A stretch of DNA of 53,283 nt from a virus (lineage: Duplodnaviria > Caudoviricetes). The stretch covers positions 1 to 53,283 of IMG/VR virus record IMGVR_UViG_3300032053_000104; one strand, written 5' to 3'. The stretch's first letter is position 1. Each line of letters starts with the position of its first letter. Under the pieces are notes generated by a model that had not been told where the DNA came from, made no database searches, and saw nothing but the letters and a program-made list of their open reading frames with translations. The position numbers were made by a program, and so were the translations under genes. Below, piece after piece: positions 4,609 to 53,265 of the stretch.

Positions 4609-4609
4609 T

Positions 4610-32846: not shown

Positions 32847-33836
32847 GTGAATATTCCTGCAAAAATCGCATTTCTTAAGCATGCGTTTAATGGCGCAAAT
32901 ATTGCACATGATGGTGTGAATATTGCTGTTGCGTGTCCAAATCAAGAATGTCTTTCTTCAAAAGAAGGAAAGCGGAAATTTTCAATTCATGTCGGAACTG
33001 ATAAATCACATTGTTGGGTTTGCGGATTTAAAACTAAGAAGAATTTATTACCTGCTTTAAGAAAAGTGTGCTCTCGCGAAGAATTGCGAGAATATATGGA
33101 TAAATTTCTTCCCGATGCTGCATCTTTAAAGGATGCTTACGATCTGGAGGAAATAAAAGATAATGAAATTGTTAAAATTCCTGATGACTTTAAGTTATTA
33201 GCTTCAAATATGACTTCACGTGATCCAATTATAAAAGAATCAATAACATATTTGTTTAAACGCGGCCTCTATGAGCGTGACTTGTGGTATTATAAATTCG
33301 GCGTATCACAACACAGTCAATTTCATAGAAGGGTAATTATGCCATCTTTTGACGAAGACGGAAATTTAAATTACTTCACTGCGAGGGCAATTGATGACAA
33401 AACACGGCTAAAGTATTTTAATGCGACGGCAGATAAGATCGTGAATATCTTTAATGAGGTCAATATCGACTGGAGTCAACCTCTTACAATCGTAGAAGGC
33501 CCATTTGATCTCACAAAATGCGATGATAATGCAACGTGTTTGTTGGGATCAACTCTCTCTGAAGATTATTTACTTTTTTGGAAAATTGTTCAAAATAAAA
33601 CACCTGTTTTACTTGGTTTAGACGCTGACGTGCAGAAGAAAACAGCCAAGTTAGTGAAGCTACTTCAGTCATATGACGTTGATGTCAAAATTATTGATAC
33701 GGGAAATTTCGCCGATATCGGCGAAATGACGAAAGAAGATTTTTTGGTATCAAAGCAAAATGCATGTGCCTTAAGTGATTCTGATATTTTAAGAAACAAG
33801 ATATCATCGATGTCGATGAAAACGAAAAGAACATAA
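32847..33836 (+). CDS. DNA primase (DnaG/gp61-like)
   Basis: Zn-binding 'CPNQEC...HCWVCG', 'YLFKRG', 'RVIMPSFDEDGNLNYFTARAI', TOPRIM 'IVEGPFD' and 'LGLDAD'. Confidence 0.9.
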   Translation: MNIPAKIAFLKHAFNGANIAHDGVNIAVACPNQECLSSKEGKRKFSIHVGTDKSHCWVCGFKTKKNLLPALRKVCSREELREYMDKFLPDAASLKDAYDLEEIKDNEIVKIPDDFKLLASNMTSRDPIIKESITYLFKRGLYERDLWYYKFGVSQHSQFHRRVIMPSFDEDGNLNYFTARAIDDKTRLKYFNATADKIVNIFNEVNIDWSQPLTIVEGPFDLTKCDDNATCLLGSTLSEDYLLFWKIVQNKTPVLLGLDADVQKKTAKLVKLLQSYDVDVKIIDTGNFADIGEMTKEDFLVSKQNACALSDSDILRNKISSMSMKTKRT

Positions 33837-33837
33837 A

Positions 33838-33966
33838 TTTAGGAGAGTTGTACAAATTCACAAGAAATGGATCACAGATCGAGAACAAGATATATGGTTT
33901 GCTGAAAACAGTTTGAAACTCATAAGAATTACAGACGCGGAATTTAAAAACGGGAGACGATTATGA
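33838..33966 (+). pseudogene. C-terminal remnant of a Vsr/DUF559-like endonuclease (not in the ORF track)
   Basis: Hand translation: FRRVVQIHKKWITDREQDIWFAENSLKLIRITDAEFKNGRRL*. No ATG start; its TGA overlaps the next ATG (ATGA). Confidence 0.6.
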
Positions 33967-34625
33967 AATGTGTTCATATGGCAGATATTCATTGGAGGGG
34001 AATGGCGCGCCACAAAGAATATCGAGAAGCATTCACTAAGTGTTTCGCACAGCTAAACGCAATAAATCCTGATATCATCTATATTGGCGGCGACATTGTT
34101 CATAGCAAGACACAAGGAATATCACCAGAGTTGATTGAAAATTTGGCGTGGTGGTTTACAGAATTAGCAAAAATTGCGCCTACACATGTTATTCTTGGAA
34201 ATCACGATGGCATTCTTACTAATGAAGATCGTCAAGACACAATTACACCCGTAATTGAAGCACTTAATAATCCAAGAATAACGCTTTATAAGCAGAGCGG
34301 CCTTTATCCAACTGGCATAAAGGGCTTTAATTGGGCAGTTTTTTCATGTTTTGATGAAAAATCATGGAAAGATGTCAAACCACGCTTGGGCGATGTCAAT
34401 ATTGCCTTATTTCATGGTGCTGTCTGGGGATCAATGACAGATGCTGATTGGAAGCTAGAGGGCGAAACAGACGTCAAATTTTTTGATGGTTATGATATGG
34501 TAATGCTTGGAGACATACACAAAATGCAAAGTGTCGGCAGCAAAGAAATTGAAATCATTATTGATGAAAAAGATTTGTACCTTTATCCCGACGCAGTTAT
34601 TTTAGAAAAAATAGATGATATTTGA
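33963..34625 (+). CDS. Mre11/SbcD/gp47-like metallophosphoesterase nuclease, N-terminal fragment
   Basis: 'HMADIH', 'GGDIVH', 'ILGNHD', 'LFHG', 'LGDIHK'; ends before the YxGS motif. Confidence 0.9.
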   Translation: MKCVHMADIHWRGMARHKEYREAFTKCFAQLNAINPDIIYIGGDIVHSKTQGISPELIENLAWWFTELAKIAPTHVILGNHDGILTNEDRQDTITPVIEALNNPRITLYKQSGLYPTGIKGFNWAVFSCFDEKSWKDVKPRLGDVNIALFHGAVWGSMTDADWKLEGETDVKFFDGYDMVMLGDIHKMQSVGSKEIEIIIDEKDLYLYPDAVILEKIDDI

Positions 34626-34839
34626 TTTATTCATAATAGAATATGAATTTCAAGGAAAGAAAAAGAAATATTTTCCTGACTTTGCAATAACATACAATGA
34701 CAAGATATGCATAGAAGAAGTCAAGGGATGGGTTCAAAAAAACGATCAAGAAAAGTTTAATATAAAGTGCAAAGCTGCTTTTGATTTTTGTTTTAAAAAC
34801 AGCTTAGTATATGTTATTAGCTTCATGAAAAGGAAATAA
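34615..34839 (+). pseudogene. Short/truncated TnsA-like PD-(D/E)XK endonuclease inserted in the gp47 gene
   Basis: 'IEYEFQGKKKKYFPDFAI...IEEVKGW...KCKAAFDFC' in 74 aa. Confidence 0.7.
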
Positions 34840-34841
34840 AT

Positions 34842-37433
34842 TTGGCAAAGTTAAAAATTAGATTTAAAAAGCCGCATGCATATTATAGTGGTAGCGTTAT
34901 ACAACAAAATCATGGTGAATCAATTGACAAGGGCTTTCTTGTTTGGAATATAAGAAGCCGTGATGACTTTGATGTTGATTTTCACGTTGTAGAACCTGTT
35001 CACCCTTACGTAACGATAGACTGGAAGGGTAATGTTTCTTCAACTGCGGCTCAGGCAAATAATTTCCCATTGGGATCAAGAATTAGAGTTAGATCAAATG
35101 AGGCAATTCACAATGTTGAATGGAAGCAACTAAAAAGCGAACTCGAAAAAACATTTAATGCAGAAGAAGTTGTATCTAAGAATGAACTTGATGCAGACGT
35201 TAAAAAGATTAAAGCGGGTGATGTCGCACTCATGAAGGATGACTTGCGCGACCCTGATACTATGATTGGCATTTTAAATCGTTACTTTGAATCAGAAAAA
35301 GCAACTCCAGAAGAGATGAAGTCGCTTGAATCTGTCGTAAGAGAAACGGTTAAAGCAGCAGCAAAAGATGATGATGTTACGCACGGATCAAAGTGGTCAA
35401 TTAAAAAATTGGAATTTGATAACACATTCATTTATGGTGCAAATAATGTTATCGATTTTCATTCACTTCCGGGTATAACGGGTATCTTTGGTAAAAATGC
35501 TAAAGGAAAATCATCAATCGTCGGAACGCTGATGTATACGCTTTTTAACACAACAGATAGAGGCGCAGTAAAGAATCTTTTTGTTATTAATGCAAGAAAG
35601 AATTACTGTCTTTCAAAGGCAACTGTTGAAGTTAATGGTGAAACATACAGATTTGAAAGACAAACTGTAAAGCATGAAGAACGAGATGGATCTGATGGCG
35701 CTTTGACAAATTTGAACATATTAAGAGTTGACAATGAGGGAAACGTTGTTGAAGATCAAAGCGCAGAACAGAGAAAAGTTTCTGAAACAGTTATAAGAAA
35801 TAAAATCGGTTTAGCAGAAGATTTTCTTTTAACAAGCCTTGCATCGCAAGGAGAAATGAATGCGTTTATTTCTAAAAAGAACACTGCAAGAAAGGCAATT
35901 CTCACAAGATTCTTGGGACTTGATATTTTTGATCGAATGTCAGAGCACCTGCGCGACGAAAGCAAAATCCTTCAGACGCAAATGAAGAAGTTTCCTGATC
36001 GCGATTGGGACGCAATGATAAAAGACAAGCAGGATGAAATTACGAATGCAAATGAAAGAATTGAGCAAATTCAGCAGTTGCTTTTAACGTATCGAGAAAA
36101 AGAAAAGAATGAACAAATAAAACTTCATACAAACTTCCCAGATACAGATAAAATTGTTACGCAGACAGAAGTAGATGATCAAGAAGACGCTGTTATAAGA
36201 ATGCAAAATAAGTTCTCTGCAACAGAGAACAATATTAAGAATGTTAATACAGAAATAGAGAAGATTCGTTTTGATCAATCAGAATTGTCTTCTTTAAAGT
36301 CAAAAATTGACATTGACGCACTCCGCTCGTCTGCAAATTCGCTTAGAGAAATTGAGAAAACACTTGTCAATTTAAAGCACGCACACGAAAAAGAGCTAAC
36401 AACGCTAAAGGGACAAGAGCGATCAGTTGAAAAGTTAAATGAAGTACCTTGCGAAGATTTGTTCCCAACGTGTAAATTCATTAAAGAATCTCATGAAAAT
36501 AAGCTTAAGATTAATGAGCAAAGACAGAAAGCAACTGATACACTTACACAAGTGAATGAAATTCATAAAAGCATTGAAGAACTTAAATTGCTTGATATCG
36601 ATAATCAAATTGACATGTATAACACATACACGTCAAAGGCAAATGTTTATTCTTTGTTATTAGCAAAAAAAGAATCAGAAGCAGTACAGCTTGCAGCGAA
36701 CAATATCGTTCTGCAGACAAAAATTGATGCTGCAAAAAATGAACTTGATGCGCTTAAGAAACAAATAATTAGCGAAGTTGTTAATGAAGAAATTACTAAG
36801 ATGAAGCAGAGCCTTAAGAATCTTCGCAATAAAATTACTGAAATTGATGCAGAGCAGCTTATGATTGCAAGTAGAACGGGCGCATCTATGAATACGATTG
36901 TTGCGCTTGAAGCAGAAAAGTTAACATTTATTGAAACAAAATCAAAATGGAAAATTTATGAATTGTTGATGGGTGCTGTATCTAAGCGCGGCGTACCTTT
37001 GCAAATCATCATGTCACAATTGCCCGCGATTAATGCAGAAATTGCTAAAATTCTACAAAATGTAGTAACATTTACTGTTGAGCTCGAAGCAGACATTAAT
37101 TCAAATGAAATGGATGTATTTATTAACTACGGTGATTCTAGAAGAATTATTGAAGTTGCGTCTGGCATGGAAAAAATGATTGCATCTCTTGCAATACGTG
37201 TAGCGCTTATCAATGTTTCTTCATTGCCAAAAACAGATATGTTGATTATTGATGAAGGCTTTGGCACACTTGATGATACAAATGTTGAAGCATGTAATAG
37301 ATTACTCTTATCACTTAAGAAGTGGTTTAGAAGCATACTGATTATTACACATATTGATGGCGTCAAAGATGTTGTTGACAACGTTATAGACATAACAAGT
37401 GAAGGTTTAGATGCAAGAGTCGTTTATGAATAA
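34842..37433 (+). CDS. Fusion: C-terminal part of Mre11/gp47 nuclease plus Rad50/SbcC/gp46 ABC ATPase
   Basis: N-terminal 'YYSGSVIQQNHGESIDKGFLVW' (SbcD motif); Walker A 'GKNAKGKSS', Q-loop 'LASQG', coiled coil, signature 'ASGMEK', Walker B 'LIIDEGFG', 'IITH'; AGGA RBS plus TTG start. Confidence 0.9.
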   Translation: MAKLKIRFKKPHAYYSGSVIQQNHGESIDKGFLVWNIRSRDDFDVDFHVVEPVHPYVTIDWKGNVSSTAAQANNFPLGSRIRVRSNEAIHNVEWKQLKSELEKTFNAEEVVSKNELDADVKKIKAGDVALMKDDLRDPDTMIGILNRYFESEKATPEEMKSLESVVRETVKAAAKDDDVTHGSKWSIKKLEFDNTFIYGANNVIDFHSLPGITGIFGKNAKGKSSIVGTLMYTLFNTTDRGAVKNLFVINARKNYCLSKATVEVNGETYRFERQTVKHEERDGSDGALTNLNILRVDNEGNVVEDQSAEQRKVSETVIRNKIGLAEDFLLTSLASQGEMNAFISKKNTARKAILTRFLGLDIFDRMSEHLRDESKILQTQMKKFPDRDWDAMIKDKQDEITNANERIEQIQQLLLTYREKEKNEQIKLHTNFPDTDKIVTQTEVDDQEDAVIRMQNKFSATENNIKNVNTEIEKIRFDQSELSSLKSKIDIDALRSSANSLREIEKTLVNLKHAHEKELTTLKGQERSVEKLNEVPCEDLFPTCKFIKESHENKLKINEQRQKATDTLTQVNEIHKSIEELKLLDIDNQIDMYNTYTSKANVYSLLLAKKESEAVQLAANNIVLQTKIDAAKNELDALKKQIISEVVNEEITKMKQSLKNLRNKITEIDAEQLMIASRTGASMNTIVALEAEKLTFIETKSKWKIYELLMGAVSKRGVPLQIIMSQLPAINAEIAKILQNVVTFTVELEADINSNEMDVFINYGDSRRIIEVASGMEKMIASLAIRVALINVSSLPKTDMLIIDEGFGTLDDTNVEACNRLLLSLKKWFRSILIITHIDGVKDVVDNVIDITSEGLDARVVYE

Positions 37434-39864: not shown

Positions 39865-42800
39865 ATGGCGAAGAAAGACGGCGGCAGCGACAATCTATTT
39901 CAAAGATTAACAGCACTTTTTAGAAGTGGTCCAATTGTTAAGCGCAAGGTACGTGCGTATAAAGACAAGGGAACGCCGTCATCTGCGCATGATGTCTTCA
40001 AGAAGAACCTGAGTTCTGTCTATAGTACAGCAATGAGCAGTTATGGGCAATACGATAGAATGTCGAGGTACAGCGATTTCTGCTTCGACGCAGAAACACT
40101 TGTTTATACTACGAGAGGCGTCTTTACATTTAAAGAACTTGCAGATGACAAAGTTCTAGGTGAGCGTTTTCATGTTTATTCATACGATTATGATAAAAAA
40201 CAAGTTGTTATATCAACAGCACATTCTCCAAGAATTGCAAAAGATGGTGAAAATGTCGATGTTGTAAGAATTCATCTTGATGATGGAGGATATCTTGATG
40301 TTACACCAGATCATAAGTGCATTCTAAGAGACGGTACTATAGAAGAAGCACAGAATCTTATGCCTGATACGTCACTTATGCCTTTTTATGTAAAGGATAT
40401 AACAGGTGATGGGTATATGTGGGTATATAACATGGAGCGCGAAACGCCTTTTAGAAAAACAAAAGGTGGATGGACGGGTGAACATAGACTTGTTGCTGAG
40501 CATAGTGCTGGAAGAGAATTACTTGAAAATGAAGTAGTACATCATAAAGATTTCAGCAGATCTAATAATCTTACCGAGAATCTTCAGATTATGGATCGCG
40601 TAGAACACAACAAATATCATGCACAATTAAATAATAAAAATAAGTTGGGCAAGCCAAATATAAAACATTCTGCTGGAATGAAAGAATACAATCATGTAAG
40701 AAATAATTCACTTACATATGATAAAATTCTCGATACGGCAATCGAAGTAGATTTTAACTGTAGAGAAGTTAGCAGATTGTTATCTGTTGACATTAATATG
40801 ATTAAATTGTGTCTTAGAGAAAGAGGATTTGAAAACTGGGAAGATTTTAATAAAAGAAGAGAAGAAGCAATAAATCAAAAAACACATGAAGTAATTGTGA
40901 ATGAAACAATTAGCCCTGAATACGATGTCATCAAAAATAGTGTTAAAGAAAATGACACGTTGTATTCAATCGCAACACGTTTAAATTGTACAACTCAATC
41001 TGTTCAGCGTAGATTGATGTCACATGGACATGTAAATTGGTCAGCATTTAAAGAATCTCTTAATATAGGTAGAGCTTATGCAGGAAAAAAGAAAGGTCCA
41101 AGCACTGATTCAACATTTACATACCAACAAGTGTGCAATGCATACAAGAAAGGAATGACGCTTTTAGAACTTGGAAAGGCAGTCGGAACAACTCATAATA
41201 AAGTGCTTACAAAGATAAGAAATGAAGGTGGAACTAGAAATTATACAGATTGGACGAAAGCACAAGAAAATCATAAAGTTGTTAGAGTTGAAAGATTAGC
41301 TGATAAGCGACCAGTTTATAATATCACAGTTGAAAAATATCACAATCTTGCAACTGGTTCACGTATTGCAGGAAATGATACGCGTAAATATTCAATGGTA
41401 TTCTCTCTGCAGAGTGAAATGGAATACACGCCTGAAATAGCAACAGCGCTTGACATACTTTCTGAAGAAGTTTCTGCACAGGACGACAAGGGCCGTGTTC
41501 TTCATATTTTTAGTGAAAATAGCCAAATTCAGCGCCTGCTTGAAGAACTTTTTTATGACACCCTGAACGTTGAGTTTAATCTCACACCCTGGGTACGAGA
41601 CATGTGTAAGTATGGCGATCTTTTTGCCTTCTTGGACGTTTCACCTGAACACGGAATTTTGAATATACTCCCGATACCAATTAATGAAATCGCACGTGAA
41701 GAGGGATATGATCCGTCAGATCCTCTTGCTGTAAGATTTAGATGGGTTACACAAGGAAATAAAGTACTTGAGAATTGGCAAATTGCACATTTTCGCTTGC
41801 TTGGCAATGATGCATTCTTGCCGTATGGATCGTCGATTCTTGAACCTGCGCGCAGAATATGGCGCCAGCTTATTCTGATTGAAGATGCAATGCTTGTTTA
41901 TCGTGTCGTTCGTTCACCTGAAAGACGTGTCTTTTATATCGACGTCGGCGCAGTTCCTGCAGAAGATATTCCAAACTATATGGAACAGGCAAGGTCAATT
42001 CTAAAGGGCAACAAGGTTATAGACTCGCATACGGGTCGCGTAGATCTCAGATATAATCCTCTATCTGTCGACGAAGACTATTTTATTCCAACACGCGGAA
42101 GCGAAGGTGGAACAAAAATTGATACGCTTGCAGGTGGCGTAAATGTCACTGCGACTGAGGATGTTGAGTATATACAGAGAAAACTATTCTCGGCGCTTAA
42201 AATACCAAAAGCATATTTGGGATTTGATGAAAGCTTGTCATCCAAGGCAGGCTTGGCACAAGAAGATATTCGTTTTTCTCGAACTGTTAATAGAATTCAA
42301 CGCGTAGTCCTTTCAGAATTAAATAAAATTGCTGTTATACACTTGTATTCGAATGGTTTTGAAGGAGATGATCTTTTAGACTTCACACTTCAGCTTTCTA
42401 ATCCTTCAACAATTGCTCAGCAGCAAAAACTTGAAATATATCGCACACGCCTTGAAATCGCGAGCTCAGCAGACGTAGCGTTGGTTGATAGACATTGGGT
42501 AAGAAAAAATATTCTTAATCTATCTGATGATGAAATTGAAAGAATCGAGCTCGGCAGAATCGATGATAAGGTTGCTGATCTTAAGATTGAAGGAATTACT
42601 GGTGAACCAGTAGAAGCTGGCGGCGGCGGCGGCGGCGGTGGCGGAGGTGGAGGAGGACTCGGCGGCGGCGGTGATGAAGGCTTACCTCCAGAAGAACCAC
42701 CAGCAGGTGAAGAACCACCGGGCGGCGGAGCGCCCGAGGGTGAAGAAGAGGCAGGCGGCGAAGATGAACCACTTCCAAGCACAGAAGATTTATTCTCTGG

Positions 42801-43311
42801 ACAGGAAAAAAAGGGCAACCTGATTGATGAAGATGATGATGTTGATTTAAGCATGTTGTCTGTTGAAGATGACAGCGCGCCGATTCGTGCTGAAGCACAA
42901 ATAAGTAAACAGCTTAAGCGCGTCAAGAAAAATAGAGAACAATTACGTCATCACGGGCCGGGATCGACACATATGCCCGATTTTGCCAAAATGGTTAATG
43001 GAAAACGCCCAGGCGATACACTGACAGATCCTTATGATTCGCATAAGGTCTTTCAAACGAATCCATTTAAAGAAGGCCAAGAGAAAGATAACTCAGTTAC
43101 AAATTTTCTTAGCAACGGGCAAAGAAAACATGCAAAAATGACTGCACAGCTATCTTCTGCGCTTAAATCACTTGATCGTAGTATAGGTAGAAATAAGAAT
43201 AGTGATGGCATTCTTACAGAGTCACGGTCGCTACTAGATATTTATGAAGAAGATGACGTCGACAATATCACGTCTGGGGAGGAATCAGGTGATGTCGGAA
43301 GTAAAGCATAA
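39865..43311 (+). CDS. Portal protein (T4 gp20-like) containing an intein
   Basis: 'PEIATALDILSEE', 'IEDAMLVYRVVRSPERRVFYIDVG', 'EDYFIPTRG..GTKIDTLAGG', 'KLFSALKIP'. Confidence 0.95.
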   Translation: MAKKDGGSDNLFQRLTALFRSGPIVKRKVRAYKDKGTPSSAHDVFKKNLSSVYSTAMSSYGQYDRMSRYSDFCFDAETLVYTTRGVFTFKELADDKVLGERFHVYSYDYDKKQVVISTAHSPRIAKDGENVDVVRIHLDDGGYLDVTPDHKCILRDGTIEEAQNLMPDTSLMPFYVKDITGDGYMWVYNMERETPFRKTKGGWTGEHRLVAEHSAGRELLENEVVHHKDFSRSNNLTENLQIMDRVEHNKYHAQLNNKNKLGKPNIKHSAGMKEYNHVRNNSLTYDKILDTAIEVDFNCREVSRLLSVDINMIKLCLRERGFENWEDFNKRREEAINQKTHEVIVNETISPEYDVIKNSVKENDTLYSIATRLNCTTQSVQRRLMSHGHVNWSAFKESLNIGRAYAGKKKGPSTDSTFTYQQVCNAYKKGMTLLELGKAVGTTHNKVLTKIRNEGGTRNYTDWTKAQENHKVVRVERLADKRPVYNITVEKYHNLATGSRIAGNDTRKYSMVFSLQSEMEYTPEIATALDILSEEVSAQDDKGRVLHIFSENSQIQRLLEELFYDTLNVEFNLTPWVRDMCKYGDLFAFLDVSPEHGILNILPIPINEIAREEGYDPSDPLAVRFRWVTQGNKVLENWQIAHFRLLGNDAFLPYGSSILEPARRIWRQLILIEDAMLVYRVVRSPERRVFYIDVGAVPAEDIPNYMEQARSILKGNKVIDSHTGRVDLRYNPLSVDEDYFIPTRGSEGGTKIDTLAGGVNVTATEDVEYIQRKLFSALKIPKAYLGFDESLSSKAGLAQEDIRFSRTVNRIQRVVLSELNKIAVIHLYSNGFEGDDLLDFTLQLSNPSTIAQQQKLEIYRTRLEIASSADVALVDRHWVRKNILNLSDDEIERIELGRIDDKVADLKIEGITGEPVEAGGGGGGGGGGGGGLGGGGDEGLPPEEPPAGEEPPGGGAPEGEEEAGGEDEPLPSTEDLFSGQEKKGNLIDEDDDVDLSMLSVEDDSAPIRAEAQISKQLKRVKKNREQLRHHGPGSTHMPDFAKMVNGKRPGDTLTDPYDSHKVFQTNPFKEGQEKDNSVTNFLSNGQRKHAKMTAQLSSALKSLDRSIGRNKNSDGILTESRSLLDIYEEDDVDNITSGEESGDVGSKA
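40081..41412 (+). mobile_element. Intein (444 aa) with HNH homing endonuclease in the portal gene
   Basis: Block A 'CFDAETLVYT', block B 'VTPDHKCI', HNH 'EVVHHKDFSRSNNLTENL', block F 'PVYNITVEKYHNL', end 'VFSLQ|S'; removal restores RYSDF-SEMEYTPEI. Confidence 0.9.
42619..42672 (+). repeat. GGN/GGC low-complexity repeat encoding a polyglycine run in the portal tail
   Basis: (GGC)6 then GGN codons; encodes G13-L-G4. Confidence 0.8.
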
Positions 43312-45976: not shown

Positions 45977-46468
45977 ATGTCGACCTTTAAGCAAAGAACA
46001 GTAGACTCATTAATTACGAGTCGCGATAAGGGATCAGCATCCTCTGCTACGCTCCAGGAAATGTTCCCAGCTTCTCCGATTCATACGGGTGAATTAACTC
46101 GTACAAGCGTTGAAGCTTTGGGAAATGATCTTATCCTTGGTGGCGAAGGCGCTGATGGTGTTGTTGATGATCGCGGCTATTGGGGTTTCACGGAACCATA
46201 CAATAAGAACTATGTAAATGCACCTGATATGTCGACAGTTGCGACTGGCGGTGGCGGCCTTCCGGGATCTCCTTGGGCACCCGCTCCAGGTAGTCCGGGT
46301 CCAGGTAGTATGTCTGCAACAGATATTCCAGCTCCTCCCGCTGATTGGCCAGGTCCGTCAGGAACTGAGTATGGATCGGGAGAGGGTGGTCTTGTATCAC
46401 CTTCTGTAACGTCAGAAAGATTATCAAAGAAGACTCTCGGGTCATACGGACTCGGCACGTCAACATAA
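45977..46468 (+). CDS. Pro/Gly-rich hypothetical head-module protein
   Basis: AGGAGG RBS; 'GGGGLPGSPWAPAPGSPGPGS'. Confidence 0.55.
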   Translation: MSTFKQRTVDSLITSRDKGSASSATLQEMFPASPIHTGELTRTSVEALGNDLILGGEGADGVVDDRGYWGFTEPYNKNYVNAPDMSTVATGGGGLPGSPWAPAPGSPGPGSMSATDIPAPPADWPGPSGTEYGSGEGGLVSPSVTSERLSKKTLGSYGLGTST

Positions 46469-47076
46469 TGCTAAGCCTCGTATCAATTCTAAAAGAATTT
46501 GAGACACGATCATCACCGAAAGATGGTCGTGACGGGCATGGTTATGGAAGAATTGGTGAGCCTAAGGGCGCAGGCACAACGTGGGTTATGGGTGCAGATT
46601 ATCCGTATGTAAAAGTTGGAAATGATGCAACAGAAGAAGAAATGATTGAGATGGACGATGATGAAGATTATGATATGAATAAAATGATGTCGAAACTGAC
46701 ATCGACATTTTATACACCGCACGATCCAATGGGTCAAAGAACGGGAAGAGTTGATAGAGCAACTTTTGCATCTGGCGGGCGCGGTCTTGGTGAAGCATTG
46801 GGAAATGTTGCAATACCAGGCATGTACAAACATAGAGATTCTGGCCTCGGCGGCGGAATTAAATATACAACTAATAGACCACAAAGAACAGGCATGAAAT
46901 ATGGGTGGTCCATGCGTCCCCCGGTGTATGATGATGCACCTGGCGAGGATCTTGAACCTGTTTATCATATTGAAGATCTCCCGTCAGACGATGAGAGGGC
47001 GTTAATGAAAGCAAAAAGAGAGCACGAAGTTATGGTTAGTGAATTTAAAATTTATCTTGGGGGAATACGTGGGTAA
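46468..47076 (+). CDS. Hypothetical, largely disordered head-module protein
   Basis: TAATG overlap with the previous gene; Gly- and acidic-rich. Confidence 0.5.
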   Translation: MLSLVSILKEFETRSSPKDGRDGHGYGRIGEPKGAGTTWVMGADYPYVKVGNDATEEEMIEMDDDEDYDMNKMMSKLTSTFYTPHDPMGQRTGRVDRATFASGGRGLGEALGNVAIPGMYKHRDSGLGGGIKYTTNRPQRTGMKYGWSMRPPVYDDAPGEDLEPVYHIEDLPSDDERALMKAKREHEVMVSEFKIYLGGIRG

Positions 47077-47382: not shown

Positions 47383-48852
47383 ATGTCTGATACGACGATT
47401 TACAATGAAGCAATTCTTGAAGCAAAAAAGCTTCGTGCAGTCGCAGAAGCGAATGCTACAAAAGTTATTATAGAGTCAGTGACGCCGCGCGTTCGTGAGA
47501 TGATCGAAAGACAGCTCTTGGGCGAAGCGATAGAAGATGACGATTCTGATATTTTGGATAATGTCATTAATGATGTTGCTGCTTGCGATACTAAAAAAGT
47601 ATCATCGCTTGCAGAAGCTGAAGACACTGATGAAGATGATAAATCTGATGAAGATCTTCTTTTAAGTACAGAATCTGCAAAAATATTTGCAAGATTTGAG
47701 ACACTTCAAAAACGTGTTTCATATATAAGAGAATTGTCAGAATCATCAAAGGGTACTAGGCTAAAAAAGACATTTTTTAGAATGGTTGATAAAATGATTA
47801 CTGAAGCAAAAACTTTAGAAAGTGATATGATACGTATAACGGGTAAGGAACTGAACGAAGGTTCCCAAAATTTTTCGAACGATATTAAAAGCATACTCGA
47901 GGAGATTACAGCGATGGCTTCCAAAAAGAGAATCAATGAAGAAGAAGAGATGGTTGACGTCGATCTTGGTGACGACTCTTCTGAAGATATGGGTGAAGAT
48001 ATGGACATGGACGTCGATCTTGGTGATGACGGTGGCGAAGAACCGCAAGAAGATGTGACATTGTCAGCTGATCTTGCACAAGAACTTCTAACTGCACTTG
48101 AATCTGAGCTTGGCGAAGAAGAAAGTGAAGAAGGCGCAGAAGCGCTCGGCGATTTTGATGTATCAGACAATGAAGGCGCCGAAGAAGGCGAAGAGATGAT
48201 TGAAATTGATGAATCAATGCTACGTCGTGAAATTGCTCGTATGAGAGGAAATTCACTTGATGAAGCGGGAAAGAAAATGGCAGCTAAGACGCCCAAAGCT
48301 CCTGTCGCAGGAAAGAAGGGCGGCGCAGCAGATACCAAGGCTACCAGCAGTTTCGGTGGTGGCAAAGTTTTGAGAGAGCCTTTTGTTGATAGCAATGATA
48401 GCGATATCAATGTTTTTGCAGAAGTTCGCATGCTCAAGACAGCACTTCAAAAAGAGGGCCGCAAGAATCGTGCTCTTCGTGAAAGACTTGAAGAATACAG
48501 AAAGGCAACTTCTAATCTTCAAGAGCAACTCGAACAGTTGAACCTGTTCAATGCTAAACTGCTCTACGTGAATAAGCTTGTGTCGAATGAGGGTGTTACG
48601 GCTCGTCAGAAGAAGACGATCATCGAAGCACTCGACAAGGCCAAGACTTTGAGAGAAGTGAAGCTCTTGTACAAGACACTTACGGAATCACTTTCAAAAG
48701 TGAAGTCACGTGGGTCAGTTAACGAGTCAGTTCATCGCTCAGCATCTAGCTCACGCCCAACGGCATCTGCTAGCTCTTCAGCGACAAGTTCAGAGTCTTA
48801 CCAGACAGATCGTTGGGCTACGCTCGCCGGTTTTGGTAAGGACACGAAGTAA
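47383..48852 (+). CDS. Prohead scaffolding protein (gp22-like)
   Basis: Acidic linker and coiled coil immediately before MCP; 'EAILEAKKLRAVAEANA', 'LNLFNAKLLYVNKL', C-terminal 'DRWATLAGF'; start ATG 47383. Confidence 0.8.
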   Translation: MSDTTIYNEAILEAKKLRAVAEANATKVIIESVTPRVREMIERQLLGEAIEDDDSDILDNVINDVAACDTKKVSSLAEAEDTDEDDKSDEDLLLSTESAKIFARFETLQKRVSYIRELSESSKGTRLKKTFFRMVDKMITEAKTLESDMIRITGKELNEGSQNFSNDIKSILEEITAMASKKRINEEEEMVDVDLGDDSSEDMGEDMDMDVDLGDDGGEEPQEDVTLSADLAQELLTALESELGEEESEEGAEALGDFDVSDNEGAEEGEEMIEIDESMLRREIARMRGNSLDEAGKKMAAKTPKAPVAGKKGGAADTKATSSFGGGKVLREPFVDSNDSDINVFAEVRMLKTALQKEGRKNRALRERLEEYRKATSNLQEQLEQLNLFNAKLLYVNKLVSNEGVTARQKKTIIEALDKAKTLREVKLLYKTLTESLSKVKSRGSVNESVHRSASSSRPTASASSSATSSESYQTDRWATLAGFGKDTK

Positions 48853-48890
48853 TATCAAAATAAATTAAACGATTCTTAGGAGAATTTCAA

Positions 48891-50816
48891 ATGAGTAACA
48901 AGTTTACACTTGAGCAGTTAACAGAAGGAATACGTTCGCGCAATCTAAGCTCGGACGGTAAGGTCCTTGTCGAAAAGTGGAGCCGCACAGGCTTGCTCCG
49001 CGGTCTTACAGACCAGAAGCGTGAGATTATGTCACGCCTTCTTGAAAACCAGGCAGCACAGCTTCTTCGTGAAACGAGCACGCTGTCAACAGGCGCAGGT
49101 GGTCTTTCAGACTCCGGCGACATGCGTGGTTTCTCAAACGTTGCATTCCCAATTGTTCGTCGTGTATTCGGCGGATTGGTTGCGAATGAACTCGTATCAA
49201 TTCAGCCAATGAGCCTTCCTTCAGGTCTGCTCTTCTATCTGGATTACACGTACGGTTCAAACGTCGGTGGTGACTCAGTCCTCGGAACAGGCGCGGCTGG
49301 CGCAGTTGCAGCTTCACCTTATACAGCCGGACAATCAATTTACAACTCACCAACTGGCAAGGGCATTCGCTCTGGTTCATTGGGCGTTGGTGGTAACTAC
49401 GATCTCGTCGGTTCATCATACTCAAAGGTGCACAAGGCTACAACATCAGCTGAGCTCTGCTTGCATGCGTCAGGCGCATGGGGCGTTAGTTCAACACTAA
49501 CAGGCGGCGCATTTGCTCATGCAACTGGTACAGACGGTCGTATGATGATGTTCGATCCTACAGTTGGTACGCTAATTGAAGAAGATATTCTTAACAACGC
49601 GTACGACGGTACAGGCAGATGGCAGTTCCTTATATTTAATGCAAATCAGCTCCCAACAGCATTTGACCTCACGAACGTGAAGGCATTCTCGTTGTTCTCA
49701 GCTAATACAACAACTGCAGGTTTGGGAGTAATTCCTCAAACAATTCAGGGTGGTTCTAACCTCCTCAACGTGAGACGTCTAAATCAGCTTGGTGTTTACT
49801 CACAAGGCGTATTTACACCTAACTCACTTGTTGATCCTGCATCAACTGGCGCGGCGCTTCTTGTCGTCGTATCAGGTGCTTATGCTCCGCCTAAGCCTGG
49901 TATCACATCAGCGGCAACTGGTCTAACTGGTTCATACGCGATTGCAGCATCACTCGATACAGATGCTGATGGTTCAACCTTGACGATTCCTAGCTTTGAG
50001 TCTGACTTCGGTACGACTCCTTCACCGGGCATCCCAGAGATTGATATCAAGATTGAGAGCATTGCAGTTACTGCAACGACTCGCAAGTTGCGCGCCAAGT
50101 GGTCACCAGAACTCGCGCAAGATTTGAATGCATTCCACAGCATGGACGCTGAAGTAGAACTTACTCAGATCCTTTCTGAGCAGATTGCACTTGAAATCGA
50201 CCGTGAAATCCTCGGCGATCTTCTTACAGAAGCACGTGGCGCAAACTTCTACTGGTCACGCGCACCTGGTAAGTTCGTTAACAAGGAAACGGGCACGGTT
50301 CAGAACCTTGCGTCAACCTTGGCAACGGGTCCTCACTTCACGGGTACAGTTCGTGAATGGTACGAAACGCTTACCGAAACGATCATCGATGTTGCAAACT
50401 CGATTCACCGCAAGACCCTCCGCGGCTCAGCAAACTTCATCGTAACTTCTCCAGAAGTTTGCACGATGTTTGAGAACTCAGTCCTCTACAAGGGCAACCT
50501 TACAATCGATGGCAACGGACAGGTCAGCACACCGTTCAGCATTGGTGCAGAAGCAGTTGGTACACTTACCAATCGTTTCACGGTTTACAAGGATCCTTAC
50601 TTCCCAAGAAATAAGATCCTCGTTGGTTACAAGGGCGGAAGCTACCTCGAGACAGGTTACGTCTATGCTCCTTACGTACCACTTATCGTTACACCGACCT
50701 TGTTCGATCCAGAGGCATTCACACCTCGTAAGGGCGTTATGACACGCTACGGCAAGAAGATGGTCCGCGCTGACTTCTTCGGTTCCGTCACGGTCATGGA
50801 TATGAACATTATCTAA
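48891..50816 (+). CDS. Major capsid protein (T4 gp23-like)
   Basis: 'LLENQ', 'PIVRRVF', 'VSIQPMSLPSGLLFYLD', 'TRKLRAKWSPELAQDL', 'ALEIDREI', 'GYVYAPYVPL', 'GVMTRYG'; AGGAG RBS. Confidence 0.97.
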   Translation: MSNKFTLEQLTEGIRSRNLSSDGKVLVEKWSRTGLLRGLTDQKREIMSRLLENQAAQLLRETSTLSTGAGGLSDSGDMRGFSNVAFPIVRRVFGGLVANELVSIQPMSLPSGLLFYLDYTYGSNVGGDSVLGTGAAGAVAASPYTAGQSIYNSPTGKGIRSGSLGVGGNYDLVGSSYSKVHKATTSAELCLHASGAWGVSSTLTGGAFAHATGTDGRMMMFDPTVGTLIEEDILNNAYDGTGRWQFLIFNANQLPTAFDLTNVKAFSLFSANTTTAGLGVIPQTIQGGSNLLNVRRLNQLGVYSQGVFTPNSLVDPASTGAALLVVVSGAYAPPKPGITSAATGLTGSYAIAASLDTDADGSTLTIPSFESDFGTTPSPGIPEIDIKIESIAVTATTRKLRAKWSPELAQDLNAFHSMDAEVELTQILSEQIALEIDREILGDLLTEARGANFYWSRAPGKFVNKETGTVQNLASTLATGPHFTGTVREWYETLTETIIDVANSIHRKTLRGSANFIVTSPEVCTMFENSVLYKGNLTIDGNGQVSTPFSIGAEAVGTLTNRFTVYKDPYFPRNKILVGYKGGSYLETGYVYAPYVPLIVTPTLFDPEAFTPRKGVMTRYGKKMVRADFFGSVTVMDMNII

Positions 50817-50843
50817 TCAACGGGAATTAGATAATGACTTAAG

Positions 50844-50868
50844 AGGCGACCTTCGGGTCGCCTTTTTT
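50844..50868 (+). terminator. Rho-independent terminator after MCP
   Basis: AGGCGACC-TTCG-GGTCGCCT perfect stem with C(UUCG)G tetraloop followed by a T run. Confidence 0.92.
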
Positions 50869-50880
50869 GTTCCTCAAAAT

Positions 50881-50908
50881 TTTACTTAGTTTTTGATAAG
50901 ATTATAAT
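50881..50908 (+). promoter_or_regulatory. Candidate sigma70-type promoter (TTTACT-16-TATAAT)
   Basis: Perfect -10 and a T4-early-like -35, directly after the terminator and upstream of ORF 50965. Confidence 0.5.
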
Positions 50909-50964
50909 TAATCTATAACTTTATTGTCAATGATTGATATAAGTAACAGCATGGTTGACTTTTA

Positions 50965-53265
50965 ATGGCATTAACAGTAACGACAGATCTCACAGTACTC
51001 ACACAGGCAGAATCATTCGCGGCACCGCTCGTTTCCTGGGGCGCGGGTGGCGCAGGCGCTGCTGCAACTGAGACTGACTATTTCGCACAAAACACAGCTT
51101 GCATCTCGCGTGGTGTCACAGGCACAACAATCAAGGGTGTGACATACGACAACACGACTGGTCTCAATTTTACGACTACACACAACGGTAAGCTGGTTTA
51201 CATGTGGTTGCGAAATTCAACACCTGGTCTTTGTGACACAAGAGCAAACGGCGGCGTTCGTGTCGTTCTTGCTTCGGGGGCAACAACACCAGGTGACGCT
51301 GCTGGTGTATGGAGTGCGTGGTACGTAGATGGCTCAGACACGATTGCTTCAACAGACGGCTGGAAATGTTATGTTGTTGATCCCAACTCGACACCGTCAA
51401 CAACTCTTGGCGGCGGCGTTGACAAGACAGCGATAAGGTGGTTCTCGGGTGTCATGAAACCTGTAGCAACAGCCAAAGGTCAAAATTTCGGTTTTGATCA
51501 AGTTGCGTATGGTTTTGGAACAATCAATGTAAGAGGCTCTCCGACAGTCACCGGAGCAGGATTCAAAGAGATCGCCGCAGCAGATTTCGGTACCATAGCA
51601 AATCGTTATGGAATTGTAACAGTTAAAGAGGGTATTATATACGTTCAAGGTAGAATTGCTCTCGGTGATGGTGTTTCTACAAACTCAACAGATTTTACTT
51701 CATCTGACGAGATTGTTGTCTGGAATCATCCAACTTACTATGATGGTACGAGAGAAACACCCTGCATAAAAGATGCAAGACCAGACGGTACGCCTTATTT
51801 TGGTATCGTTAGGACTGGTAATGCTACGGCAAACTCAAATGTTACTTTTGGAACGAAAGTAGGAACGGGAGATACAGCATCGGGCCGTTCAGGTGGCACA
51901 TTTGTCGGTTCAAGAATAAGAACGGGATTCATCGGTGTCTCAGGATCTGTCAAGTCTACATCACTTCTAAAAGTGTATGGCACACAATTTTCTAACTTTA
52001 ACGCAGGATTTGATCTAACACCTGGAATCGTTGGCGATGAGTGGATGGGTGGATCAATAGCACGATGTGGAACGATGCGTCCAGGTGTGACGAAGATCAG
52101 AAACACGAGTTTCATCGATAATCTCGGTGGCGCGTACAAGTTTTTCGAAGATTTCAAAAACGACGCTGTGGGTAACGAAGCATTAGCGACTGCTGATCCA
52201 AGAATTGACTGGGCAAATGCTGTTGGCGGAACGCAGGTAGTTGTGCCAGGAGGATCATCTTTTGCAAGACTTGATTCTGCAGCAGCAACGCGAAATGTCG
52301 TAAAAATAAACAGCGACTCCGTTGGTAGTGATGATCACTATGCAGAAGCTGTTATCAATTTTCCATCTGGTTCGAATCAGGGAATTATGGGTGTGTTTTG
52401 CAGAGCATCGACAACGCTAGCAACTGAAAATTACTGGTTCTTACAACTCGATAGACCAAATAACCAAATGAGCCTGGTGCGATGTGATGCAGGTGTCGAC
52501 ACAACAGTACACGGCCCACTTACACTTACTATGTCTGCTGACACAGACTATTTAGTTCATATTAGAGGTTCGGGTACAATATTAGAAGCGCATGCTGGCG
52601 GGGTAAAGGCTTTTGCAACTTCGTCAACATATCAGACAAATAGATGGGTTGGTGTGAGAGGAACGACAAATGCTTCTCAGACGGCATCTGCTGAACCAAA
52701 GTTTCTAAGATTTGGTTGCGGTCCGATTACAGATAACTATGGCGCTGTTAAGATGACACACTTGACAGCATCAGATATTGTCAACTGTTCGTTCATCAAT
52801 AATAACAGAGCAATAGACATAACTTCTGCATCACTTTCATACAATTTTGATGGTTACAAGTTTTCTGGTAACTCGATAGGGTTGAGAAACTCATCGGGCG
52901 GCGCCGTTGTAATCGGTGCTACGCTCGATTCTCCAGAGACTGCAAGGGAAATAATTAATGCAGGCTCTATAACAGTTAATAATAGCGTCAACTTAACTGT
53001 TACTTGTAGAAATTCTGCTGGCACGGCGCTAGAAGGGATAAGAGTGAGAATACAAAAAACATCTGACAATTCATTAATTGCCGAAGGAACAACGAGCGTT
53101 GCTGGCACGCTCACTTCTGCATACAATTACACAGGAGATCTTGGTGTCAAAGTTATTGCTAGACTCAAGGGATTCAAAAACAATGCAGCAACAGATACTA
53201 TCGTGAACACTGGCCTAAGTGTTCCTTTCACGATGCTAAGAGACGATGCAGTAAGCATGCCATAG
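50965..53265 (+). CDS. Large fibre/spike-like or head-associated accessory protein
   Basis: T/G/A-rich; beta-helix-like stretches ('IVNCSFINNNRAIDI'), a lectin-like insert, C-terminal Ig-like domain ('VNLTVTCRNSAGTALEGIRVRI'). Confidence 0.55.
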   Translation: MALTVTTDLTVLTQAESFAAPLVSWGAGGAGAAATETDYFAQNTACISRGVTGTTIKGVTYDNTTGLNFTTTHNGKLVYMWLRNSTPGLCDTRANGGVRVVLASGATTPGDAAGVWSAWYVDGSDTIASTDGWKCYVVDPNSTPSTTLGGGVDKTAIRWFSGVMKPVATAKGQNFGFDQVAYGFGTINVRGSPTVTGAGFKEIAAADFGTIANRYGIVTVKEGIIYVQGRIALGDGVSTNSTDFTSSDEIVVWNHPTYYDGTRETPCIKDARPDGTPYFGIVRTGNATANSNVTFGTKVGTGDTASGRSGGTFVGSRIRTGFIGVSGSVKSTSLLKVYGTQFSNFNAGFDLTPGIVGDEWMGGSIARCGTMRPGVTKIRNTSFIDNLGGAYKFFEDFKNDAVGNEALATADPRIDWANAVGGTQVVVPGGSSFARLDSAAATRNVVKINSDSVGSDDHYAEAVINFPSGSNQGIMGVFCRASTTLATENYWFLQLDRPNNQMSLVRCDAGVDTTVHGPLTLTMSADTDYLVHIRGSGTILEAHAGGVKAFATSSTYQTNRWVGVRGTTNASQTASAEPKFLRFGCGPITDNYGAVKMTHLTASDIVNCSFINNNRAIDITSASLSYNFDGYKFSGNSIGLRNSSGGAVVIGATLDSPETAREIINAGSITVNNSVNLTVTCRNSAGTALEGIRVRIQKTSDNSLIAEGTTSVAGTLTSAYNYTGDLGVKVIARLKGFKNNAATDTIVNTGLSVPFTMLRDDAVSMP

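Follow-up and report, generated by a model that had tools for sequence, protein, structure and literature searches.

The closest described relative of the locus studied here is an intein-less 'SbcD-like' gene from the Lake Gatun GOS data, fractured by an endonuclease gene, in which the upstream ORF carries 25 extra C-terminal residues and the downstream ORF 9 extra N-terminal residues (Dassa et al. 2009, NAR 37:2560, PMC2677866). In the split-intein fractured genes of the same account (among them gp41, DnaE, NrdA/NrdJ and terminase), the 3' end of the endonuclease gene overlaps or abuts the downstream start, and association of the ends was proposed to be charge-driven. A second system is NrdA of Aeromonas phage Aeh1, whose tails are described as essential for activity and thought to have arrived with the endonuclease DNA, in a process that by that account involves neither RNA nor protein splicing (Crona et al. 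2011, NAR 39:1381, PMC3045599). The Discussion of that paper also mentions tail-like extensions with a similar charge pattern in the T4 gene 39/mobA/gene 60 topoisomerase (PMC3045599).

In a 53,283-nt stretch of viral DNA (hereafter, the window), we analysed a gene for a fused Mre11-Rad50 (SbcD-SbcC) protein that is broken between motif V of the nuclease and the next core strand. As in the SbcD-like locus described by Dassa et al. (2009), an SbcD/Mre11-type gene is present as two ORFs with a free-standing endonuclease gene between them and no intein, and the 25 and 9 extra residues, located there between consecutive conserved motifs, agree by description with the ~25 and 9 of the window. The endonucleases differ, a full Vsr-like ORF being described in that locus and a 74-aa PD-ExK (TnsA_N-like) remnant being found in the window, and the 2009 account is not known to assign a role to the extra residues. 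An intein-less SbcD-like fractured gene with extra residues at its ends is thus already contained in that paper (PMC2677866), and the novelty of the sequence-only reading was overstated: the split Mre11-Rad50 layout was first reported in 2009, the mechanism considered below is not new, and the NrdA case was tested in 2011.

The comparison with Aeh1 nrdA-a/mobE/nrdA-b, as described by Crona et al. (2011), reveals an essential phage enzyme fragmented in both cases by a free-standing homing endonuclease, with oppositely charged tails. However, Aeh1 has a ribonucleotide reductase and an HNH endonuclease where the window has Mre11-Rad50 and a PD-ExK remnant, and the charge polarity is reversed, the upstream tail being basic and the downstream tail acidic in Aeh1. 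Furthermore, the Aeh1 tails act in dimerisation of the heterodimer and not in joining the two fragments (PMC3045599), and only one allele with the Aeh1 split is known, against many divergent phages with a split Mre11-Rad50. The split-intein fractured genes of Dassa et al. (2009) share with the window the gene layout and the contact between the endonuclease 3' end and the downstream start, but their parts bear intein halves and become ligated through trans-splicing, whereas no intein features were found in the window. In T4 gene 39/mobA/gene 60, a different phage enzyme is likewise split by a mob-type endonuclease gene.

Anatomy of the split gene

The three ORFs lie where the sequence-only reading had placed them, and the parts of the locus are as follows:

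33963-34625, plus strand: N-half gene (ORF1, 220 aa), with Mre11/SbcD phosphoesterase motifs I-V up to GDIH, then the tail
34530..34622, plus strand: acidic C-terminal tail of the N-half (residues 190-220, SVGSKEIEIIIDEKDLYLYPDAVILEKIDDI), without counterpart in the nearest unsplit homologue
34615-34839, plus strand: ORF2 (74 aa), a decayed putative homing-endonuclease gene, C-terminal fragment of PD-(D/E)xK (TnsA_N-like) type
34831-34834, plus strand: AGGA ribosome-binding site of the C-half, within the last codons of the endonuclease remnant
34842-37433, plus strand: C-half gene (ORF3, 863 aa, TTG start), with the head, the last Mre11 core strand, the capping domain and the full Rad50/SbcC ATPase
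34842..34880, plus strand: basic N-terminal head of the C-half (MAKLKIRFKKPHA), of a type common to other split loci

The break falls between consecutive conserved motifs of one conserved enzyme gene, carried by two adjacent ORFs on the same strand. ORF1 ends in ...MLGDIHKMQ, the 31-residue acidic tail and a stop codon, and ORF3 begins with MAKLKIRFKKPHAYYSGSVIQQNHGES, its TTG at 34842 being 7 nt from the AGGA as read from the sequence. The two halves are separated by a 216-nt spacer and share a reading frame, the same-frame interval between them containing several stops of all three kinds.

Residues 1-187 of ORF1 match Metallophos (PF00149, E 3.3e-14), with phosphoesterase motifs I-V in this N-terminal domain, and the N-half profile matches SbcD/Mre11 chains in the PDB (E 4e-9), motif V region included. 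ORF3 matches AAA_23 (189-412), SMC_N (188-853) and SbcC_Walker_B (767-822) in Pfam and SbcC-like phrog_77 in PHROGs (E 3.3e-49); the Walker A, coiled coil and Walker B of an SMC-type ATPase are thus found in one chain with the C-terminal part of Mre11. In unsplit homologues, PF00149 and PF02463/PF13476 are on one chain of ~1046 aa.

The unsplit ~1046-aa fusion is the usual form, with standard spacing in 108 of the best 120 matches. The sequence-only reading had stated that the G(H/D)xH and YxGS motifs normally lie close together, and this was borne out in 339 contiguous homologue junctions: GDIH and Y-x-G-S are 14-17 residues apart in 319 of them and 19-30 apart in 16, and the other 4 are without the motif as written. 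The closest relative, P0002, is unsplit, 82-88% identical and collinear except at the junction: residues 1-189 of ORF1 align to it without gaps (88% identity), and ORF3 aligns to its residues 197-1047 (82% identity). The tail of the window stands in place of P0002 residues 190-198, and altogether 31 + 13 residues of the window replace 9 of P0002; relative to long-loop relatives, the extra residues are ~25 + 9.

As the sequence-only reading had suggested, ORF2 is an endonuclease fragment. It matches Tn7_TnsA-like_N (E 1.3e-5; 26.0 bits, slightly below the 26.5 cut-off) and DUF7487 (E 3.5e-4) in Pfam, and phrog_15427 'endonuclease' in PHROGs (E 8.9e-7, profile positions 189-247 of 270); because these matches are confined to the final third of the profiles, ORF2 corresponds to only the C-terminal third of an endonuclease. 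A search of ORF2 for a full nuclease core and a DNA-binding N-terminal region found the remnant only.

The junction was supported by contigs from three other runs. A 7557-nt contig of run X1, which is near-identical to the window and may come from its own sample, spans 33900-35300 with one difference; run X2 yielded a 740-nt contig across 34426-35166, and contigs of run X3 cover 34385-34658 and 34693-34934. All three differences between these contigs and the window lie inside the endonuclease remnant, one of them being a 1-nt deletion at 34736 seen in two other runs; the count is 3 in ~216 nt, vs 0 in ~525 nt of the X2 contig. None of the RNA runs looked through contains the stretch. The endonuclease gene of the window has decayed to a 74-aa 3' remnant.

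Tail, head and predicted association of the two halves

Beyond the window, 19 distinct split loci were recovered, all of them with homologous tail and head, so that both peptides are common to 20 distinct split loci of GC 0.31-0.61. A homologous tail ends 34 of the 120 N-side proteins among the matches listed, and heads of this type occur in P0014, P0021 and 18 other split loci. Both peptides had been noted as extra sequence from the letters of the window alone. For the tail, alignment upheld this, since it is absent from unsplit homologues and conserved in the split loci; for the head, it holds for the first ~7-9 residues, whereas some unsplit relatives show an equivalent of its 'KKP..Y' part.

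With synonymous sites near saturation in most pairs (pS 0.54-1.04), pN/pS was 0.13-0.51 for the tail in 12 of 13 pairs, and 0.04-0.72 for the core among split alleles. In the closest pair (L075/L079), synonymous and non-synonymous differences number 10 and 5 in the tail, and 4 and 0 in the head. Judging from these ratios, purifying selection acts on the tails. In GC-rich loci, the 'AEVI' codons of the tail (GAGGTGAT) also serve as Shine-Dalgarno site of the C-half, so part of the tail conservation could be at the nucleotide level.

The reading that we consider likely is that of a fractured gene whose separate halves reassemble non-covalently, in an assembly stabilised by a sheet of tail and head. 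A homing-endonuclease cassette would have cut the fused phage gene at the tip of a hairpin, after motif V (GDIH) and before the last core strand (YxGS). Each half would be translated separately, the C-half from its own AGGA site and TTG start, and without covalent joining the C-half would contribute the core beta-strands needed to complete the nuclease fold. The tail, presumably linked to the cassette, would form a strand, a short helix and a strand, and together with the head, in which K/R and hydrophobic residues alternate, would add a small beta-sheet at the break, an extension stabilising the assembly. In the window, the endonuclease gene has decayed, and its remnant still bears the ribosome-binding site of the C-half.

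Co-folding of the N-half with residues 1-190 of the C-half gave an ipSAE of 0.88 in all three runs, vs 0.00 for the best of 3 controls, in line with the association anticipated by the sequence-only reading. The runs share at least 81% of contacts, with partner pLDDT of at least 72. Of 157 solved complexes, 116 reach the mark of the tool, as do 2 of 215 mismatched pairs; these counts hold only roughly because own alignments were used. Furthermore, since the halves belong to one known fold, resemblance to solved Mre11/SbcD structures may account for the pass. The predicted interface includes tail residues 190-203, 205, 208 and 210-219 and head residues 1-20, and on this model the two conserved peptides, acidic in the tail and basic in the head, probably keep the halves associated.

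In addition, a single-chain AlphaFold2 model was obtained for L082, a related allele with one in-frame stop between the halves, read through as X. Its mean pLDDT is 86.8, with blocks over residues 191-240 at 92-96, and the predicted order is strand 193-205, helix 206-211, strand 216-221, break at 223 and strand 226-238; this read-through fold would place the break in a beta-ribbon/helix/strand extension, although the single X joining the halves favours a hairpin and the heads are misplaced in 14 C-half rows of the underlying alignment. The model matches E. coli SbcD (4lty_A; E 1.2e-13, TM 0.68 by target, 392 columns), with a nuclease and capping-domain fold continuous over the break.

The strongest of the rival explanations, although unlikely in our view, is that the halves reassemble by complementation of the Mre11 core beta-sandwich only, tail and head being passengers: cassette ends kept for their stop, ribosome-binding and start signals, or for another step such as higher-order assembly. 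The lowest-error co-fold contacts are those between core strands (N 2-5/C 32-37; N 180-182/C 12-15) and not those of tail and head, so the halves might associate without the peptides; in L075, L079 and L083, the tail codons contain GAGGTGAT shortly before the C-half start; and the Aeh1 tails are described as dispensable for the heterodimer but needed for the dimer of heterodimers (PMC3045599). However, the tail is conserved as protein over GC 0.31-0.61, even where the Shine-Dalgarno codons are lacking (for example in L089), with pN/pS below 0.52 in 12 of 13 pairs, and tail and head are modelled as a regular sheet at pLDDT 92-96 and lie in the predicted interface.

Translational bypass of 50 nt is known from T4 gene 60, and a single chain might also be made here by bypass, frameshift, stop read-through or a self-splicing intron. 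We regard this as very unlikely, although ORF1 and ORF3 share a frame, as do the halves of L082 (one stop between them) and L163 (one stop plus one codon). Intron covariance models (Rfam, E up to 10) gave two chance-level matches over 33800-35400 and no family in the gap of the window, and no Rfam intron was found at gathering score in L091, L162, L164 or L092. The same-frame interval of the window is interrupted by several stops of three kinds, and the frame relation of the halves varies over 14 loci (offset 2 in 7, offset 1 in 3, in frame in 4). In most split loci the halves are adjacent or overlapping; all 18 C-halves examined begin at the head with a start codon of their own, and in many loci this codon overlaps the stop of the N-half (GTGA or TTGA). 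These overlaps and the varied frames fit separate initiation and not recoding, and the tail is conserved as protein as far as its stop.

That tail and head are a tiny or degenerate split intein ligating the halves by trans-splicing is barely credible. The order of host N-part, endonuclease gene and host C-part is that of the fractured genes of Dassa et al. 2009 (PMC2677866), a degenerate-intein origin of such tails was raised by Crona et al. (PMC3045599), and some tails have a Cys two residues past a conserved Arg. Nevertheless, this Cys is present in a minority of tails (Lys/Ile in the window), the extra peptides of ~25 and 9 residues are far short of any intein half, and the 20 aligned tails and heads have no conserved junction residues, including no His-Asn plus Cys/Ser/Thr at the head/extein boundary. 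Consistent with the absence of an intein from the sequence-only reading, no Pfam intein or Hint domain was found in either half (E up to 0.1), whereas the same library detected one in the portal ORF of the window. Equally improbable is a dead gene, inactivated by the endonuclease insertion and decaying in pieces: the endonuclease itself is plainly decayed, but both halves are full length with their family domains, core pN/pS is 0.04-0.72, the other-run variants fall outside both halves, and split alleles persist in many divergent phages.

Returning to the reading of non-covalent reassembly, tail and head may tentatively be viewed as a portable split mini-domain carried on homing-endonuclease cassettes, a non-covalent 'antidote' to gene fracture with a full life cycle. 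If true, proteins cut inside a domain could be reassembled by such a mini-domain in place of a split intein, in a natural and transferable way. The data show that selection can maintain a catalytic domain cut at a hairpin in the form of two genes, whose cut ends bear short charge-complementary peptides, and that what in 2009 was a single metagenomic curiosity is a widespread, long-lived state of a phage repair enzyme. The recent split/unsplit pair (82-88% identical) sets the cassette boundaries to the residue, and makes a handy test case for the necessity of the tail, its transferability and the endonuclease-driven spread of the split.

Junction endonucleases and phylogeny of split alleles

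A full-length endonuclease gene lies at the junction in three split loci: L091 (302 aa, PD-ExK type), L162 (297 aa) and L164 (295 aa). ORF2 is homologous to that of L091, with 35% identity over 69 aa (E 1e-13) to its residues 226-292. An endonuclease gene or remnant is present in 3 of the 4 outlying split alleles, the window included, vs 1 of 16 in the main split clade.

The split alleles are polyphyletic. An IQ-TREE phylogeny of 55 rows shows 6 changes of split/unsplit state and groups the window with unsplit P0002 (support 100), and the AU test of split alleles as one clade, a group defined by the trait and tested after the first tree had been seen, gave a delta lnL of 839 (p 3.7e-63). As the split alleles do not form one clade, the junction has moved between alleles or has been lost repeatedly.

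Several alleles would fit successive stages of a life cycle. The window, beside its 82-88% identical unsplit sister, would correspond to invasion, as would L091 and L162, invaded lineages keeping the endonuclease; the main split clade (GC 0.31-0.61), where translationally coupled halves persist long, to the stage after endonuclease loss; and the long-loop scar in P0011, L136, P0230/P0239 and L104 to occasional re-fusion.

Split organization of the Mre11-Rad50 gene

The Mre11-Rad50 (SbcD-SbcC) gene of this phage is genuinely split inside its nuclease domain. The window, with about 35% GC overall, carries T4-type structural genes (Gp20-type portal, Gp23-type capsid protein, baseplate wedge proteins and large terminase), and the interrupted gene lies after a DnaG-like primase gene (32847-33836) and before a small ORF. 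It comprises the following three ORFs:

ORF1, 33963-34625, 220 aa: N-half; calcineurin-like phosphoesterase, Pfam PF00149 at residues 1-187 (E 3.3e-14)
ORF2, 34615-34839, 74 aa: ORF between the halves; endonuclease profiles matched over their last third only
ORF3, 34842-37433, 863 aa: C-half; AAA_23, SMC_N and SbcC_Walker_B; phrog_77 (E 3.3e-49)

The N-half profile matched solved SbcD/Mre11 chains (E 4e-9), and the ORF1 product ends with nuclease motif V (LGDIHKMQ), 31 more residues and a stop. ORF2 matched Tn7_TnsA-like_N (E 1.3e-5, slightly below the cut-off), DUF7487 and positions 189-247 of the 270 positions of phrog_15427. ORF3 starts at a TTG codon 7 nt downstream of an AGGA site that is located in the last codons of ORF2, and its product opens with MAKLKIRFKKPHAYYSGSVIQQNHGES, followed by the SMC/Rad50-type ATPase. 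These coordinates, domains and initiation signals confirmed the split-gene anatomy that a sequence-only reading had described.

Contigs from three sequencing runs covered the junction. A 7557-nt contig from run X1 spanned positions 33900-35300 with one difference from the window, to which X1 is near-identical and of which it may be the source sample. A 740-nt contig from run X2 bridged 34426-35166, and contigs from run X3 spanned 34385-34658 and 34693-34934. The differences found in these contigs (a 1-nt deletion at 34736, A>G at 34759 and G>A at 34820) were all inside the endonuclease remnant and none was in either half; three differences in ca. 216 nt compare with none in ca. 525 nt of the X2 contig, although these are small numbers. 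This distribution fits the pattern expected of a decaying spacer flanked by two selected genes. Among the sequencing runs listed as matching the stretch, no RNA run was found, and promoter and terminator scans of 33700-35100 gave site numbers no higher than those in shuffled sequences.

A search with the ORF3 protein retrieved 943 proteins at E ≤ 1e-3 from 8000 scored candidates, and the best 120 were examined. In 108 of these 120, a single chain of ca. 1046 aa had exactly 21 residues between the GDIH of motif V and IQQN, and in one the distance was 29 residues; three were C-halves of 861-863 aa (that of the window, P0014 and P0021), and eight fell outside the search pattern. The top match, the unsplit protein P0002 (1047 aa), aligned gap-free with residues 1-189 of ORF1 (88% identity) and with residues 13-863 of ORF3 (82% identity). 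Its nine residues FLTKDKRIA are replaced in the window by an acidic C-terminal tail of 31 residues on the N-half, a 216-nt spacer and a basic N-terminal head of 13 residues on the C-half. Over all the contiguous junctions collected, the distance from GDIH to YxGS, the next nuclease motif, was 14-17 residues in 319 of 339.

Tail and head peptides at the break

A search with ORF1, restricted to lengths of 121-385 aa, listed 120 proteins, of which 34, including that of the window, were complete N-halves (206-233 aa) ending in a homologous tail; the other 86 were contig-end fragments of unsplit genes or lacked the motif. Three scans of IMG/VR provided a total of 239 loci, and 26 of the 304 rows with both parts recovered were split. 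After removal of same-contig and near-identical copies, 20 distinct split loci were used, window included, with GC contents ranging from 0.31 to 0.61.

Two mutually alignable tail sub-types were recognized, roughly [YW]R-x-x-E-x-x-I-D-E-x-D-L-x-x-Y-P-x-A-E-[IV]-I and R-W-S-[YT]-x-E-[IV]-D-x-x-x-L-x-x-Y-x-x-x-G-W-E-[IV], with the tail of locus L091 being intermediate. The head consensus, M-[AGS]-K-[KLIV]-[KR]-I-[KR]-x-K-[KR]-P, is an alternation of basic and hydrophobic residues, and a start codon was present at the head position of the C-half in all 18 relatives with printed results. The opposite charges attributed to the two peptides from the sequence were borne out by residue counts in the window (nine acidic and three basic residues in the tail, five basic and no acidic residues in the head), the statement on charge being based on the window peptides and on the 20-locus alignment read by eye. 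Judged from these alignments, tail and head are a conserved feature and not read-through junk. MAFFT repeatedly set the native 'AYPGS.IQQ' of unsplit proteins against 'KYPGAEVIE' of the tail (alignments A7 and A9); the target sequence may have been duplicated and have diverged to give the tail end, or the likeness may be due to chance.

Synonymous sites were near saturation in most of the pairs compared. In the closest pair, L075/L079, the tail showed 10 synonymous and 5 non-synonymous differences (pN/pS 0.13) and the head 4 synonymous and no non-synonymous differences, the values for the flanking cores being 0.04 and 0.11. Tail pN/pS was 0.13-0.51 in 12 of 13 pairs; the value of 0.90 for the window and L162, a pair comparing the two tail sub-types, probably reflects misalignment. 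Head values are invalid for pairs with L081 or L082, where back-translation slipped (MAFFT dropped the stop or out-of-frame codon).

Co-folding of the window N-half (34-row alignment) with residues 1-190 of the C-half (39-row alignment) gave an ipSAE of 0.88 in all three runs vs 0.00 for the best of three controls, with at least 81% contact agreement among runs and partner pLDDT of at least 72. Among 157 solved complexes, 116 attain the mark applied, as do 2 of 215 mismatched pairs, rates that are rough here, with custom alignments. Since the chains are two halves of one known fold, the pass may be due to likeness to solved Mre11/SbcD structures. The predicted interface comprised residues 178-203, 205, 208 and 210-219 of the N-half, taking in motif V and almost all of the tail, and residues 1-20 of the C-half, with the head and the YYSGS strand. 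The contacts of lowest error, however, were between core strands (N-half 2-5 with C-half 32-37, and 180-182 with 12-15).

In locus L082 just one TGA separates the two in-frame halves, which were folded as a single chain with the stop read through as X (40-row alignment, A8, in which the first seven head residues of 14 C-half rows were misplaced in columns 14-20). The model had a mean pLDDT of 86.8 and a pTM of 0.78, with blocks over residues 191-240 at 92-96, and its match to E. coli SbcD (4lty_A, E 1.2e-13) spanned the break. It showed a strand at 193-205 (QFLGFRDVELVID), a helix at 206-211 and a strand at 216-221 (EVIEEI); the break is at residue 223, beyond which comes a strand at 226-238 (KVRIKTKKPWIGY). 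On this model, the short native hairpin after motif V would be extended to a beta-ribbon with a helix and a short acidic strand as its cap, and the chain would be cut just ahead of the returning basic strand. The proposed clasp mechanism is computationally supported and plausible, with association of the halves and need for the peptides as its predictions.

Junction endonucleases and possible spread of the split

Most split loci have nothing between the halves, the N-half stop overlapping or abutting the C-half start (GTGA in L074; TTGA in L075 and L079; ATGA-type in L089, L182 and L184). In 14 tabulated loci the frame offset was 2 in seven and 1 in three, and four were in frame; so varied a relation speaks against any conserved frameshift, bypass or read-through and favours halves that initiate separately, though often in a coupled way. 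In three relatives, the junction itself is occupied by a full-length endonuclease ORF:

L091, 302 aa: TnsA_N-like PD-ExK core; 3' end overlapping the C-half start by 28 nt
L162, 297 aa: 'ExDG...H' core, weak DUF559 / MTES_1575 / PvuRts1I-like matches; overlap of 8 nt
L164, 295 aa: 'ExDG...H' core, weak DUF559 / MTES_1575 / PvuRts1I-like matches; overlap of 13 nt

A Cys-rich N-terminal region is common to the three proteins. Those of L162 and L164 are of the Vsr-like kind reported by Dassa et al. 2009, who also observed this 3' overlap (6-69 bp; PMC2677866). ORF2 aligned with residues 226-292 of the L091 endonuclease (35% identity, E 1e-13), and is thus what remains of the 3' end of a junction endonuclease gene of this sort. 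A scan of viral contigs for relatives of the L091 endonuclease found none beyond its own contig. ORFs similar to its PD-ExK core (residues ~182-281; E 1e-5 to 1e-13) were seen elsewhere, ca. 2.5 kb upstream of the N-half in L060, L082, L083, L164, L186, L200 and others. In L092, L093 and L094, an 83-aa junction ORF without a Pfam family takes the endonuclease's place (at about 4084-4335).

In the window, 30 codons at 33856-33945 (+), in the interval from the primase stop to the start of ORF1, match the C terminus of the L162 Vsr-like endonuclease (47% identity, E 5e-4 against the window); this may be a second endonuclease remnant, once more a 3' end that immediately precedes a gene start. A 26-nt direct repeat (33824-33849 and 34827-34852, 81% identical), with copies at the primase gene end and at the remnant end/ORF3 start, may be due to chance or be a shared gene-start signal.

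Trees were built from a concatenation of the N-domain, ending at GDIH, and the C-part, starting at YxGS, tail and head columns being excluded. FastTree on 220 distinct rows gave at least four changes of split state. For IQ-TREE (LG+C20 PMSF, quick search), 304 rows were thinned by k-mer similarity to 55 (249 left out), 20 split and 35 unsplit, and six changes were obtained. One clade held 16 of the 20 split loci and one unsplit long-branch row (L136). The window was the sister of the unsplit P0002 (SH-aLRT 100) inside a five-row clade otherwise unsplit, L091 was in a deep separate clade, and L162 and L163 were each placed elsewhere, outside the main split clade. Forcing the 20 split rows into a single clade cost 839 log-likelihood units (AU p 3.7e-63).

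The homology of the tails and heads excludes an independent origin. Either the junction segment has passed between divergent alleles, or precise losses of it have occurred many times. Three of the four outliers had an endonuclease gene or remnant (window, L091 and L162) vs one of the 16 main-clade loci (L164), with a post-hoc Fisher estimate of ca. 0.013 on rows that are not independent; homing with co-conversion of flanks would give such a link. Near the junction, the window has MVMLGDIHKMQ vs FAMLGDIHKVQ in P0002, and VMLGDIHKMQ is found in several split alleles, which at most hints at a short conversion tract.

Long loops of 19-30 residues from GDIH to YxGS, with a tail-like start and a head-like end, were found in 16 of the 339 contiguous junctions, for instance FLGYRDGKPWIGYPG in P0239 (listed with P0230) and FLNWRIASDGVRKPFVGYSGS in P0011, and also in L136, L195, L080/L212, the L095 group and L146; L104, cut by the contig end and so outside the 339, has the same kind of loop. 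Several of these alleles neighbour split ones in the trees: P0011 was in the clade of the window, L136 fell within the main split clade and the L095 group was next to L091. Such loops may be scars left by re-fusion, or they may represent the long-hairpin ancestral state from which the first split arose. In an AT-rich lineage (L103, L129, L132, L137, L140, L143 and L149; GC 0.27-0.33), the nuclease-motif ORF stops ca. 78 residues after GDIH, beyond the YxSS/QQNFGE motif, and no long same-frame continuation of it was found in these loci; this may be another break point or a separate Mre11 gene.

Related fractured genes and other features of the window

Dassa et al. 2009 (PMC2677866) describe one Lake Gatun locus in which a Vsr-like endonuclease ORF separates the N- and C-halves of an SbcD-like exonuclease and a split intein is lacking; judged from their text, this is the same arrangement as that of the window. 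For the mobE-split NrdA of phage Aeh1, Crona et al. 2011 (PMC3045599) showed that activity depends on tails of opposite charge that came in with the endonuclease, and that the heterodimer forms without need of them; these authors predicted that such tails had been overlooked in other fractured genes and raised a degenerate-intein origin for them. Our literature search found no paper on a wide distribution of the Mre11-Rad50 split, which is no proof of absence. [quoted passage not shown]

The T4-type portal ORF of the window (39865-43311 (+), 1148 aa) contains Pfam Intein_splicing at 103-496, an HNH_3 endonuclease domain at 207-249 and then Portal_T4 at 518-895, so that a gene other than the split one carries a true intein in this phage. 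In the Gp23-type major capsid ORF (48891-50816 (+), 641 aa), the best Pfam match comes in two stretches and is confined to residues 376-631 (profile positions 126-355), and the ORF may hold an insertion or an N-terminal extension. GC content is 0.45-0.52 at 3001-5000, 14001-15000, 46001-47000 and 48001-52000 vs ca. 0.35 elsewhere in the window, these stretches covering a tail-fibre-like ORF, an ORF with Laminin_G_3 and a glycine-rich ALK_LTK_GRD domain, and the capsid region.
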